From an uncultured virus (IMG/VR IMGVR_UViG_3300008113_010842) (taxonomy: Duplodnaviria > Heunggongvirae > Uroviricota > Caudoviricetes): DNA of 64,000 nt. Of the stretch, positions 39,490 to 60,840 are shown piece after piece; position 1 is the first letter of the stretch, and each line of letters starts with the position of its first letter. The stretch is taken from IMG/VR virus record IMGVR_UViG_3300008113_010842; one strand, 5' to 3'. The notes beneath the pieces are model-generated. The model worked only from the letters and a program-made list of their open reading frames with translations. It was not told where the DNA came from and did not search any database. Position numbers and translations under genes: made by a program.

Positions 39490-39957
39490 ATGAAACAACC
39501 TTCAAAAGAGGATTTATTGAAAAAATGGTCGTCTATTTTAGGACCAATGGGTATAACAAGTTCTCAATTAGATAATCTATTACAATTAGCTGAAAATCAA
39601 TCTAATCATATATTAGAAGAAAATACTAAAGCATCTGAATTTCCAACTTTATTACCAATGGCTATGAAAGTGGCGGCTCAAACAATTGGTCAAAATTTAG
39701 TTAGTGTTCAACCAATGTCTCATTCCGGAATGTCTCAAGAAGAAATTGATAGAATTAATGCTGAGATTAAGAAAGAAAACCGTGATAGTAAAATTGACGC
39801 CATAGTTGAAGGTAAAGATTATAAAGAATTAAAACCAGAACAACACCCTGATTGGAAATCAGGTCCAGTTGGTAATCTATTTTATTTAGACTACAAATAT
39901 GGTCATAAAAAGACAAGAAGAGCTGGTAAAAAACATAAAAAGAAATCAAATGACTAA
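39490..39957 (+). CDS. Truncated major-capsid-protein (gp23-like) N-terminal fragment with an inserted RDSKIDAI segment
   Basis: KEDLLKKWSSIL, LAENQ, VAAQTIGQNLVSVQPMS...GPVGNLFYLDYKYG parallel T4 gp23 N-terminal motifs; only 155 aa. Confidence 0.65.
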   Translation: MKQPSKEDLLKKWSSILGPMGITSSQLDNLLQLAENQSNHILEENTKASEFPTLLPMAMKVAAQTIGQNLVSVQPMSHSGMSQEEIDRINAEIKKENRDSKIDAIVEGKDYKELKPEQHPDWKSGPVGNLFYLDYKYGHKKTRRAGKKHKKKSND

Positions 39958-40063
39958 ATATGTATCACCTGGTGTTTATGTTAAAGAGGTAGATATTTCT
40001 ACATATTATCCACCTAAGAAATGGGGAAGAATGAAGAAAATTTCTAAAATTTTTACTAAGTAA
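39950..40063 (+). CDS. 37-aa mini-protein: tail-sheath-like N-terminal arm plus RMKKISKIF tail (absent from ORF track)
   Basis: MTKYVSPGVYVKEVDISTYYPPKKWGRMKKISKIFTK*; overlaps the stop of the previous gene. Confidence 0.65.
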   Translation: MTKYVSPGVYVKEVDISTYYPPKKWGRMKKISKIFTK

Positions 40064-43630: not shown

Positions 43631-43825
43631 ATGTTAATTGTAAAAATCGAAGGTAAAGAAACTATCGAAAGAGCTGTAAAAAAACTCAAAAGAAAATATG
43701 ATAATGCTAAAATTGGTAAAACTCTTAGAGATAGAAAAGAATTTACAAAAAAATCTGTCAAAAGAAGAGACGAACTAAAAAAGGCAATTTATAAGCAAAA
43801 ATTAAGAGACGGTGAAAGAGACTAA
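43631..43825 (+). CDS. rpsU: Ribosomal protein bS21 (phage-encoded, Bacteroidota-like)
   Basis: MLIVKIEGKETIERAVKKLKRK...LRDRKEFTKKSVKRR. Confidence 0.9.
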   Translation: MLIVKIEGKETIERAVKKLKRKYDNAKIGKTLRDRKEFTKKSVKRRDELKKAIYKQKLRDGERD

Positions 43826-53001: not shown

Positions 53002-53267
53002 ATAACACAGAAACAAACATTTTTGACAGTGAATACTGGAAACTTTTAGAAAGACAAGGTATTAATAGATATCTTAAATTAGATAATAACTTAGTTATTA
53101 TTACTGATATCTTAAAAAAGAAAAGAAAAAAAGGTGGTAAAGTAAACCAAGTTTATTATGTCACTGAGTGTGGAATAACAAAACATGCATCATTCTTTTC
53201 TAAAATAGACAAAAGAGATATTTTACAAATTAAAAGGGATTTAAAATTACAAAAACTAGGACTATGA
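52989..53267 (+). CDS. Open frame of about 92 codons with no ATG/GTG/TTG start, ending KRDLKLQKLGL (absent from ORF track)
   Basis: Stop-free from 52989 to TGA 53265-53267, fills the gap, ATGA overlap with the next gene, carries the shared C-terminal motif. Confidence 0.55.
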   Translation, partial: QSKLNNTETNIFDSEYWKLLERQGINRYLKLDNNLVIITDILKKKRKKGGKVNQVYYVTECGITKHASFFSKIDKRDILQIKRDLKLQKLGL

Positions 53268-53470
53268 AAAATAAATACAAAAGTATCTACAGCACATATA
53301 ATGACTATAATATTGATTATAAAGACTATGGTAAATATGTTAATATAACAGACTATATCAATGAGTATAATGTTGATTGGGTAGAATATAAACCCGAAAC
53401 AAAAGAAGAAAAACTAGCTCGTGAAAAGGCGGAAAAAAGAAATTCTAAAATCGACCAAATCTTAGGATAA
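53264..53470 (+). CDS. Small hypothetical protein ending KRNSKIDQILG
   Basis: 68 aa; coupled overlaps on both sides. Confidence 0.65.
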   Translation: MKNKYKSIYSTYNDYNIDYKDYGKYVNITDYINEYNVDWVEYKPETKEEKLAREKAEKRNSKIDQILG

Positions 53471-54006
53471 TGGAATGGATAATCGCCTTTAGTATAGTGA
53501 TTACAATTTTTTTGACTATATTATCAATACCTTCTTGGGTTGAAGTTTATAAATTAGGTTGGAAAGAATATATTGAAAGTTGGAAGTCTATTTCTTTACT
53601 TAAAAAAGGTCTAAATTTGTCTTATAAAATAGAAAAAACACAAACTTTAAATTATAATTATTATAATGGTAAAACTAAATCAGTTACCTCCAAAGTTACA
53701 GATTATTATTACCCAATATTTAAAAATGGTGATGTTATAATAATTAAAAGTTCCGAGAGTCCTTTTTCAACGATATATGTCATTTTTAACCGTAAAATGA
53801 ATGGTAAATGGGTTGAAAATACAACTGAACTTAAGACGAGTCAGTGTCCCTGGCAACAATTATTTATTGATATCGTTAAAAATAAATTGATTAAGTTAAG
53901 AGAATCTTCTCTTAAATTAGAAAATGTGAATAAACTAGAAGAAGTTATTTATTCTGATTTATTGGAAAGAGATAGAGATAATAAGATTAATTTATTATTA
54001 AATTAG
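53470..54006 (+). CDS. Membrane-anchored hypothetical protein ending RDNKINLLLN
   Basis: N-terminal hydrophobic helix; 178 aa. Confidence 0.65.
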   Translation: MEWIIAFSIVITIFLTILSIPSWVEVYKLGWKEYIESWKSISLLKKGLNLSYKIEKTQTLNYNYYNGKTKSVTSKVTDYYYPIFKNGDVIIIKSSESPFSTIYVIFNRKMNGKWVENTTELKTSQCPWQQLFIDIVKNKLIKLRESSLKLENVNKLEEVIYSDLLERDRDNKINLLLN

Positions 54007-54362
54007 TCTTCTTTCTTAAAAGAAGATGGTGTTATTAAATTTTGTTGTTTAAAAACCTTTAATAAAATGAAAACTAATGTACCTCCTGGTAAGATAGATA
54101 ATGATGTTAAACCAAGCATTTTTAAAATATCAACTGATTGTTGTTTTATAAATCTTATTTCTTCTTCTGATAAATCCCTTTTTTTACCTTCAACATCTAA
54201 TAACTCACCTTTTGATGCTTTACTTAATAAGTCGTAAGCCTGTCTCGTTTCATCACCTTCATTTTTTAGTTTTCTTTTGAATTCTTGGAAATTGTTTTTC
54301 AAATCCTCTATAAGTTGAGATGGATCAATCAGGTAATCTTTTATAGATTTTATGTATTTCAT
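54003..54362 (-). CDS. Hypothetical protein with hydrophobic LPGG hairpin (possibly LETM1-like) and MKYIKS leader
   Basis: ILKMLGLTSLSILPGGTLVFILLKVF..ITPSSF; TAATATATA 6 nt upstream. Confidence 0.55.
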   Translation of the reverse strand: MKYIKSIKDYLIDPSQLIEDLKNNFQEFKRKLKNEGDETRQAYDLLSKASKGELLDVEGKKRDLSEEEIRFIKQQSVDILKMLGLTSLSILPGGTLVFILLKVFKQQNLITPSSFKKED

Positions 54363-54414
54363 TATAATTATATATTATTTTACAAACAATCAAAAGTTTA
54401 TTTTTTATAATTAT

Positions 54415-54603
54415 ATGAATAATAAAGAAAATTTAGATATTTTTGGACAATTACTTAACGGAAAACAAGTTATAATTGGAAAACCGCGACAGGTAGGAAA
54501 AACCTATGCTACACAATTATTTAGAGATTGGAAAGTCACTTTTAATAAACACTCTCGTGCTCAGGATAGAAAAGAAAGTATAAAAAAACTTTTTAATATA
54601 TAA
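54415..54603 (+). CDS. 62-aa mini-protein with a terminase-type Walker A (KPRQVGKT) plus RKESIKKLF tail
   Basis: ATG at 54415 directly behind AAAC-N18-TATAAT (54384-54411); VIIGKPRQVGKTY. Confidence 0.6.
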   Translation: MNNKENLDIFGQLLNGKQVIIGKPRQVGKTYATQLFRDWKVTFNKHSRAQDRKESIKKLFNI

Positions 54604-55225: not shown

Positions 55226-55927
55226 TTATTGTTTATACTGATATCCGTTTTTCTTAGCGAACTCTTTTGCTATATTGACCAGTTTATCCTTCTTTGGGCT
55301 TCTATCAAGGTCCATTCCGAATCCTCGATAGAGTTGAACCGTTTTACTATTGTCATCGATTTTAATCAATGTAACTTCTCTATTTTTTTCCATTTTATCA
55401 CTTACATATTCCCAACCAGAACCAACTAAGTGAGAGATTCCATTTTCAACAGGAGTTCTTTTCAAACCCATAAATTTATTAGCATCCATAGAGTATTCTA
55501 ATTTAGATTTATTTATAGATCTCTTAGGTTTTATAACCAAACAAACATCTGTGAATTTAAGTATTTCACATTCTAACATATCACCATAATTTTCATCAAT
55601 ATATTTTTTAACGTTTTCTGAATAGCTTTTACATTTCTCTTTATCCATACCTGGTTGAAAAAATAACTTAGTAGATCCTCCTATTGACGGTCTATCGTCA
55701 TCATTCATAACTAAATAAGCATTGTAATTTCCACCATCATATAAATTTTTACTAGGTATAAATTTTGTGAATTCGGTCTCATTGTCAAATTTATGCAATC
55801 CAAATTTTACAATTAATCCCATTTTTCTTAGTTCATTTACTAACTTCTTAAAAATTGATTTTAACTCAAGATTAGTATTTGCTGCCTCTTCTATTAAAAA
55901 GTTTTCAAATAATTTAATATGTTTCAT
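55226..55927 (-). CDS. Hypothetical protein with MKHIKLFENFLIEE leader
   Basis: 233 aa; TAATATATA at 55950-55958. Confidence 0.7.
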   Translation of the reverse strand: MKHIKLFENFLIEEAANTNLELKSIFKKLVNELRKMGLIVKFGLHKFDNETEFTKFIPSKNLYDGGNYNAYLVMNDDDRPSIGGSTKLFFQPGMDKEKCKSYSENVKKYIDENYGDMLECEILKFTDVCLVIKPKRSINKSKLEYSMDANKFMGLKRTPVENGISHLVGSGWEYVSDKMEKNREVTLIKIDDNSKTVQLYRGFGMDLDRSPKKDKLVNIAKEFAKKNGYQYKQ

Positions 55928-59868: not shown

Positions 59869-60567
59869 TTATTTTATGCTTCCACCAGATAAGGCAAAAA
59901 CCAGCGACTTTGATAGTAGAAGTATTAGAACAGACGCAAGAGTTATGACAAAACTCCAACCTATGACACTTAATAATGTCATGTTGATGCCATTAAGAAA
60001 TAGTATTAATTTAGCTCCTACTCCACAACTGATGAGATTAGCCATGCCTGTGAAGTTTAATATACTAAGTAAAAATGATAGAAACTTCTGAGTTATTCCT
60101 TCTGGTTTATTATGTGGTTGGTCATCTTTCATTCTTTCTTTGAATTTGTTCCACTTTTCTTGTACTTTCTTTTTGATATCTTCCCAATTAAGAGATTTTA
60201 AAAATTTGACTAATTCAGAATCTCTTTTAATTGGTTCTACTCCCCAAGTTGTCGATCCTGTTGCATATTGTGTCTCTGTTACTATTTTTTGTAAATTTTC
60301 ATTACTATCAAACATTTTTTTGATAGAAATAGCAATTTTTTCTCCACCAAATTCTTCAATTATACCTTTGACAAACTCCTCGATTGCTTCTTTCAAAGAA
60401 TTAAGACCGCCTTTTATAGCATCAGATATATCAGAAAGTTTATCAGAAATTGAATTCCAGATATCACTCCACATATCCGAAGATCCTTTTGTAATGTCTG
60501 CTGGGAATGTCATAAAATCTAAAACTTCATTTGTTTTGAATGATTCAAATGTCTTTAAATATTTCAT
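59869..60567 (-). CDS. Membrane protein with MKYLKTFESFKTNE leader
   Basis: 232 aa; C-terminal hydrophobic helices. Confidence 0.7.
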   Translation of the reverse strand: MKYLKTFESFKTNEVLDFMTFPADITKGSSDMWSDIWNSISDKLSDISDAIKGGLNSLKEAIEEFVKGIIEEFGGEKIAISIKKMFDSNENLQKIVTETQYATGSTTWGVEPIKRDSELVKFLKSLNWEDIKKKVQEKWNKFKERMKDDQPHNKPEGITQKFLSFLLSILNFTGMANLISCGVGAKLILFLNGINMTLLSVIGWSFVITLASVLILLLSKSLVFALSGGSIK

Positions 60568-60582
60568 AATTTTTATTTTTTT

Positions 60583-60840
60583 TTACATTTCTTCTTCAGG
60601 TAGTTCACCTTCCATAGCAAGATAAACTTCTTTGAAATCTTCAATGGTCCAATTAGGATAAAACTCTTCAAGTTCTTTTAAGGCCATTTCACTACCTGTG
60701 ATTACATTGTAATATTGGTCTTTTGCCATATTCCACAAACCAGGCATTTGTTGATATTTTGCAATAACTTCTTCTGTGGTTTTTTCACCACTATTCTCAT
60801 ATATTTTAGAGAACGATTCAAATAGCTTTATGTGTTTCAT
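60583..60840 (-). CDS. Small protein with MKHIKLFESF leader
   Basis: 85 aa; TAATATATA at 60861-60869. Confidence 0.7.
   Translation of the reverse strand: MKHIKLFESFSKIYENSGEKTTEEVIAKYQQMPGLWNMAKDQYYNVITGSEMALKELEEFYPNWTIEDFKEVYLAMEGELPEEEM

Follow-up and report, generated by a model that had tools for sequence, protein, structure and literature searches.

Tail-tagged fragments of terminase and other core proteins in an uncultured phage and its relatives, possible decoys for bacterial immune sensors

A 62-aa miniprotein encoded by a huge uncultured tailed phage was found to carry a copied piece of the large terminase that is under selection, and to end in a short tail shared with many other small proteins, among them fragments of several further core viral proteins fused to the same module; an intact terminase is present elsewhere in the genomes of relatives. 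An observation on a single gene is thereby widened to a tagged repertoire, and the function proposed for it from sequence is partly supported: with confidence falling a little short of even, we suggest that the miniprotein may well act as a decoy for sensors that recognize core phage proteins by short or unfolded motifs.

The window analysed here comprises the opening 64 kb of a virus record of 122,918 bases that is estimated to be 24% complete. The miniprotein ORF is real, with an ATG at 54415 and a stop at 54601-54603 on the forward strand (54415..54603), and the gene is backed by 295 relatives and by pairwise dN/dS. Its translation contains KQVIIGKPRQVGKTYATQLF and ends in QDRKESIKKLFNI. 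The initial annotation had described a 62-aa ORF starting 3 nt after AAAC-N18-TATAAT, and both coordinates and translation agree with that description. An alternative in-frame ATG at 54352 would give an 83-aa form, unlike most relatives, which are 61-64 aa long. In loci long enough to show the context, the gene is flanked by a Sir2 gene and an HD-family gene, and the order of this Sir2 operon is the same in L001, L003, L004 and L010-L013. The two upstream genes of the operon (53264..54006, + strand) both end in the looser, class-A form of the tail described below. In relatives the miniprotein gene overlaps the stop of the upstream tail-tagged ORF, instead of following a promoter-like element. 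It was also observed that in four loci (L003 5832-5996, L004 5600-5764, L013 3841-4005 and L189 1326-1508) a class-B ORF of 54-60 aa with a helicase Walker-B-like strand lies directly upstream of the orthologue; it is absent from the window, where a reverse-strand gene (54003-54362) takes its place.

Relatives of the miniprotein were recovered by a single-sequence search (13), a search of a 50%-cluster library (10) and a profile search (295 among 556 candidates of 33-109 aa); a first scan of viral contigs gave no match. The ESM Atlas gave a lead in the form of unnamed small viral clusters and of small proteins among which 19-55% of members have terminase Pfams. The RQxGK[ST] motif is kept in 108 of 121 aligned relatives, with R25 invariant, K23 and G28 each present in 120 of the 121 and positions 31-38 variable; when eight more distant members are included, the motif is found in 112 of 129 and the broader K-x-R-[QKR]-x-G in 127. 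Among eight DNA sequences compared, residues 23-30 showed the lowest pN of the protein-coded parts (pN 0.13, pS 0.57), followed by the C-terminal tail (0.19, 0.54) and the helix after the P-loop (0.38, 0.51). Pairwise dN/dS was 0.15-0.63 for pairs with unsaturated synonymous sites, such sites being near saturation for pairs involving the window sequence. Furthermore, RQxGK[ST] occurs only 8 times in the 579,487 residues of called ORFs of six related records, namely in three terminases, four members of the miniprotein family and one unrelated 251-aa ORF. The initial annotation had allowed for a chance match should RQxGKT not be conserved among homologs; this conservation, together with selection on the motif codons and the rarity of the motif across called ORFs, rules a chance match out. 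N-terminal residues not of terminase origin are conserved as well. Two records carry a 44-aa form consisting of strand and loop, helix and tail without the N-terminal helix, which is also missing from a form of about 50 aa in LR745206.1 with a presumed TTG start. A 176-aa entry (P0131) fuses the miniprotein to the next gene by read-through; it comes from a single contig and is possibly an error.

Residues of about 10 to 49 are the first strand, Walker A loop and next helix of the large terminase. The strand and loop (residues 17-30, KQVIIGKPRQVGKT; 54463..54504, + strand) were recognized by a PHROG terminase match and by pN/pS, and the helix after the P-loop with its invariant W39 (54505..54555, + strand) by hhalign and helix prediction. 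The earlier wording of an ORF carrying only a Walker A loop was correct as to the terminase-derived loop and too narrow otherwise, as the copy also spans the strand and the next helix and is joined to a shared C-terminal tag. Comparison with terminase families, which had been suggested at that stage, gave weak but repeated PHROG matches: E 0.022 for the 62-aa ORF and E 0.0012-0.048 for seven relatives, several others having no match. The related large-terminase families are PF03237 Terminase_6N, PHROG 2 and PHROG 5989, and in the Pfam scan of the 62-aa ORF the terminase cut-off was not reached, the one match being unrelated (E 0.22). PDB sequence searches with the miniprotein returned no relevant match.

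The cognate terminase, with which comparison had likewise been advised, does align with the family profile (probability 36, E 3.8e-4), but a foreign 529-aa terminase fits far better (40 columns including W39, hhalign probability 96, E 1.6e-9), a contrast that is inflated because the foreign protein was itself found with this profile. Of the 129 members, 122 score higher against the MA9V-1 terminase than against that of their own clade. W39 belongs to the family as a whole, most members of which have the form K-A-R-Q-T-G-K-S, compared with M-A-S-R-Q-V-G-K-T and no W in the own terminase. An intact terminase of 710-726 aa is located elsewhere in the near-complete relatives W01 (where it was identified by Pfam), G001 and G002, and terminase-size frames are present in G069, G071 and G072; in whole relatives the terminase-size ORF is the only long-frame match of the family profile. 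No terminase match was found in the 122,918-base record, estimated at 24% completeness. A split or broken terminase gene was considered and rejected, given the Sir2, HD and accessory neighbours and the intact terminase elsewhere in relatives. A search of longer proteins found one read-through fusion among 8000 candidates, which is weak evidence against a split gene.

The miniprotein is not an ATPase, since it has no Walker B and the P-loop lysine is replaced in 14 of 129 members; the pattern hhhhDE occurred in none of the 129. The initial remark that the ORF is too short for such an enzyme is borne out. A complete P-loop fold of about 200 aa is not present in the 62 residues: the AlphaFold2 model (64 sequences) consists of two helices (residues 3-21 and 31-59) and no strand, with pLDDT of about 58 in the first half, and a Foldseek search of this model against viral structures gave nothing at E<=0.001. 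The shape of the motif is kept and its chemistry is not, with a constrained loop, a dispensable lysine and no Walker B. Compared with the ATPase domain of T4-type large terminases, the likeness covers about 40 residues (strand, R-Q-x-G-K-[ST] loop and helix); the miniprotein differs in its length of 62 aa, in lacking Walker B, sheet and nuclease, in its dispensable lysine and in its shared tail.

This tail, R-K-E-S-I-K-K-L-F (54556..54600, + strand), is a short basic helix recognized by its pattern and pN/pS and is referred to here as class B. Five related records (G001-G004 and W01) were used, with ORFs called per 20-kb stretch by a simple longest-ORF rule and those cut by the ends of the stretches left out. 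The class-B pattern R(K/R)xKIxx(I/L)F, written after examples had been seen, marks 44 small ORFs (<=110 aa) across the six records, with 2 matches in 7829 internal windows; the looser class A marks 161 small ORFs and 141 larger ones, with 27 matches in the same number of windows. A wider form of the tail occurs on 344 ORFs with unrelated heads, and in 248 of these at most two residues separate its end from the stop. In the same 344 ORFs the R, K, I and L codons of the tail are used as elsewhere in the genome, and fixation in DNA is limited to the last three codons, which rules out a DNA-level repeat as the source of the tail. Class-B tails have a median net charge of +4, compared with 0 for other C-termini, and a median hydrophobic moment of 0.34 compared with 0.30, which is not unusual; they may resemble an amphipathic membrane-targeting tail of the MinD type. 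No ankyrin repeats were matched in Pfam scans for the shared module. Tagged genes tend to be neighbours, with 45, 15 and 47 adjacent pairs where shuffling gave at most 29, 14 and 38, and 136 of the 142 larger tagged proteins have no Pfam match at E<=0.001.

Pieces of other core proteins were found among the heads of class-B ORFs. When all 44 were scanned against PHROG, 12 matched head or tail families at E<=0.05 (seven major capsid, three terminase, one head protease and one tail fibre) and 32 did not; among controls there was one match in 70 random class-A ORFs and none in 70 random untagged small ORFs (1 of 140 together). The Fisher value of 1e-7 for this difference is overstated, as the 12 matches are orthologues of about six genes. 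By Pfam, the capsid pieces fall on four segments of Gp23. Direct alignment with the clade's own proteins, identified by Pfam, showed a polymerase B motif piece identical at 11 of 14 positions, and further pieces aligned with scaffold repeats, head protease, the sheath N-terminus, a helicase strand and the portal C-terminal helix, most of these alignments being low-scoring. A profile search against 121 own-clade core clusters (>=10 bits) matched 6 of 44 class-B ORFs, compared with 0 of 44 reversed, 4 of 220 shuffled, 6 of 160 class-A and 3 of 160 untagged sequences. Single-sequence BLAST against the clade's long proteins at E<0.01 showed no class-B excess (1 of 23; untagged 16 of 386), and when a capsid piece and the presumed polymerase motif-B and SSB/helicase pieces were run through tblastn, the outcome was either nothing or unrelated sequences. 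Names such as 'polymerase motif B', 'gp32-like' and 'tail tube' used for sister genes are accordingly tentative.

Two such genes lie in the window itself. A second class-B mini-gene (39950..40063, + strand) joins a tail-sheath N-terminal motif (PHROG tail sheath E 0.034) to the same tail, has weak tblastn matches to annotated sheaths and is present in relatives; it falls outside the count of 44 owing to an overlap filter. A 155-aa gene (39490..39957, + strand) is assembled from parts of the major-capsid N-terminus and has a tail-like motif in its interior (PHROG major head E 3.6e-5; Pfam Gp23 E 2.3e-4), and a sheath piece and a capsid piece are also paired in LR756502.1. One capsid piece is 44% identical to T4-like gp23 of other phages, with 1660 matching records, and has a raw score of 110 against it compared with 41 against the own capsid. 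Among 11 capsid pieces, six score clearly higher against gp23 of Caulobacter phage Cr30, which was picked via one of these pieces, four against the own capsid and one equally.

Several further tagged ORFs were recorded. An 87-aa class-B ORF (L193/L194 1238-1501) seems to combine two motifs in one head, tentatively labelled SSB-like and helicase-like, neither of which was confirmed by tblastn or Pfam. Two class-A heads (L033 14233-14529 and L094 16085-16384) match, at 21-27 bits, the UVR coiled coil in the ClpA/C-type ATPase of the phage itself, and these miniproteins are possible Clp adaptors or mimics. Two class-A-tagged proteins of 243-249 aa (L047 9912-10661 and L090 7176-7907) cluster with the major capsid protein and may be a longer capsid-derived tagged form. 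In W01 the family B DNA polymerase is apparently split between two distant genes (L086 10568-11992 and L091 12803-14344), each encoding one of motifs A and B.

The element AAAC-N18-TATAAT (54384..54411, + strand; AAAC 54384-54387, TATAAT 54406-54411), 3 bases before the ATG of the miniprotein gene, is moderately supported as a promoter. In the window alone the enrichment is not significant (15 matches of AAAC-N17-19-TATAA against 9.7 +/- 3.1 in shuffles, 7 of 100 of which reach 15), and in six related records a stricter element occurs in 61 of 2334 upstream and 10 of 10,579 internal windows. Its spacer peaks at 17 (70 matches against about 35 for other spacers), 18 having only 43. The last codons of the gene, F-N-I-stop (54592..54603, + strand), overlap AATATATA, and the F-N-I codons are identical across all eight DNA sequences compared. 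Considering also its enrichment in front of genes (found in 502 of 2334 upstream windows and in 20 of 10,579 internal ones), AATATATA at this position is a probable promoter of the next, HD-domain gene. It rarely precedes tagged genes (class A 6 of 297, class B 0 of 44, others 496 of 1993), a scarcity that suggests an accessory, non-late class. In the six records 234 ORFs begin with an M-K-x-x-K-x-F-x-x-F-like motif, and AATATATA precedes 102 of these ORFs; examples in the window are 55226-55927, 59869-60567 and 60583-60840. This start is seldom paired with the C-terminal tail (9 of 341) and is reminiscent of the T4 capsid-targeting sequence.

The window encodes bS21 (43631-43825, Pfam), the bacterial relatives of which are Bacteroidota by title in 65 of 70 loci. 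Because this bS21 is closest to Bacteroidota, we infer a host in that phylum. Sequences in G000 outside the window (80625-81191 and 83443-83877) look to us like ClpP and SmpB, and the related clade encodes a ClpA/C-type ATPase (Pfam). Freshwater phages with bS21 (PMC9723584, accessible part) are similar in that their bS21 is also closest to Bacteroidota; genomes of that clade are up to 331 kb long and have bS21 next to the terminase, compared with 385-635 kb for the relatives here and no terminase near bS21 in this record.

A set of decoys appears the best reading because a selected, non-catalytic excerpt of an immune trigger is repeated for other triggers under one tag. The motif is the most constrained part of the miniprotein, yet its catalytic lysine is dispensable and Walker B absent; the N-terminal helix is missing from the relatives of 44 and about 50 aa, which retain strand, loop, helix and tail; and head and tail matches are concentrated in class B compared with class-A and untagged ORFs. 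Known triggers of sensors include terminase, capsid, portal, polymerase and helicase (PMC13581612, accessible part), with which the copied proteins overlap. Several copies also appear closer to general T4-like proteins than to the clade's own, as a broad bait would be. The miniprotein would be made early, among accessory genes, and would bind a sensor of a short or unfolded terminase motif, occupying it without activation; the tail would then dock bait and captured sensor on a common partner such as a protease, the membrane or a phage compartment.

Upx-type beta-augmentation would fit such binding better than the mode of Avs2 or Avs3. In the accessible parts of the sources, Upx, whose domains are described in PMC13099982, is modelled to bind unfolded terminase strands beta1, 4, 5 and 6 by beta-augmentation, with many FCB-group homologues in the supplement (PMC13601566), and Lit and CapRel read short capsid motifs (PMC13581612). 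No Upx-size frame was found in the 61 Chitinophagaceae-family genomes searched. Avs2 and Avs3 hold the folded, ATP-bound ATPase through a large surface (PMC13601566), and for most Avs sensors the ligand is a whole fold, which they envelop (PMC13581612; PMC13601566). Since Avs2 and Avs3 depend on a folded ATPase, and short or unfolded motifs are what Upx, Lit and CapRel recognize, the target is more likely to be a sensor of linear epitopes. The initial annotation had named Avs1-3, which is doubtful given this large-surface grip and a model without a strand; of the terminase mimic it proposed, the conserved terminase-derived piece stands and mimicry itself is a matter of interpretation.

A number of points weigh against a decoy. 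Forty residues are too few to present the large folded ATPase surface that Avs2 and Avs3 grip, the predicted structure has no strand where terminase has one, and T4 vs.8, although terminase-like, activates rather than blocks Avs2 (PMC13601566, accessible part). Most class-B ORFs are unmatched, BLAST shows no class-B excess and 5 of 11 capsid pieces fit the own capsid equally well or better. A likeness to foreign proteins would equally suit dominant-negative poisons of competing T4-like phages, the main alternative and a somewhat unlikely one, under which a piece would insert into a rival's terminase ring, capsid or sheath by a conserved contact motif and the tail would pull the complex off pathway, the owner's diverged proteins escaping. 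The better fit of the family profile and of most members to foreign terminases, and the high score of one capsid piece against T4-like gp23, are what speaks for poisoning, but these foreign proteins are the top matches of the same queries, which inflates the contrast. The capsid pieces that fit the own capsid, together with scaffold, polymerase and head-protease pieces that also fit own proteins, count against it, and a buried strand plus P-loop would make a poor oligomer contact.

The breadth of the tail, on unrelated heads and on larger proteins mostly without Pfam matches, with tagged genes clustered and N-terminal residues outside the terminase copy also conserved, could mean that the function resides in the tail, as a tag for localisation or docking on some 340 proteins, and that the heads are scraps captured by recombination and retained as spacers or scaffold, without mimicry. 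This we think unlikely: the motif codons are tighter than those of the tail and far tighter than those of the helix, the minimal 44-aa form retains exactly the motif, and core-protein pieces are concentrated in the basic subtype only. It is improbable that the fragments tune the phage's own assembly or replication by holding early-made terminase, capsid and polymerase inactive until the late phase. The own terminase is the profile's sole long-ORF match in relatives and several pieces match own proteins, but W39 and the K-A-R-Q-T-G-K-S form are absent from that terminase, and the genes lie far from the structural block, within accessory operons. The stable position between Sir2 and an HD-family gene might point to a minimal P-loop peptide binding or sponging a nucleotide signal with these neighbours, a very improbable role when the P-loop lysine is replaced in some members and sister genes copy non-nucleotide motifs, such as those of capsid and sheath.

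The nearest precedent for the proposed decoys is Bodo saltans virus, in which ankyrin-repeat proteins likewise carry fragments of essential viral genes on a common module and were proposed as decoys for host antiviral factors (PMC5871332, accessible part). That case is a hypothesis only and concerns a eukaryotic giant virus with a large ankyrin module, whereas here a bacteriophage encodes proteins of 35-90 aa with a 9-residue tail, copying structural and replication proteins. T4 vs.8 and Ksap1/2, non-terminase activators of Avs2, are also stand-alone terminase-ATPase-like phage proteins; vs.8 comprises an entire ATPase-like domain, Walker A and Walker B included, and the miniprotein a 40-residue excerpt (PMC13601566, accessible part). 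Upx, Lit and CapRel are host sensors of linear epitopes such as the miniproteins display, and the accessible parts of PMC13601566 and PMC13581612 mention no phage decoy for them. In the accessible part of the EVADES preprint (10.1101/2025.06.06.658234), the anti-Avs proteins known so far resemble ligases or bind nucleotides; that of PMC13359090 contained nothing relevant. No description of tagged core-protein fragments in phages was found in the largely open-access literature searched.

The tail on some 340 uncharacterised proteins would be a sorting or docking signal. Were the fragments poisons of rival phages, they would form a genome-wide phage-against-phage arsenal. If they are decoys, each bait of 40-60 aa would be a cheap reagent, testable against terminase and capsid sensors in one co-expression screen, and baits could be used to fish for Bacteroidota sensors as yet unrecognized (sheath, head protease, scaffold). 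A further and rather unlikely step would be that huge Bacteroidota-infecting phages hold a modular library of bait peptides over their conserved proteome, the tag sending sensors to a common sink such as their own Clp protease; if true, the baits would map the epitopes read by bacterial sensors, those of still undiscovered sensors among them. Most core phage proteins are under watch by sensors of bacteria (PMC13581612, accessible part), and for phages whose targets are indispensable these genes, if decoys, would be a general answer to such surveillance.
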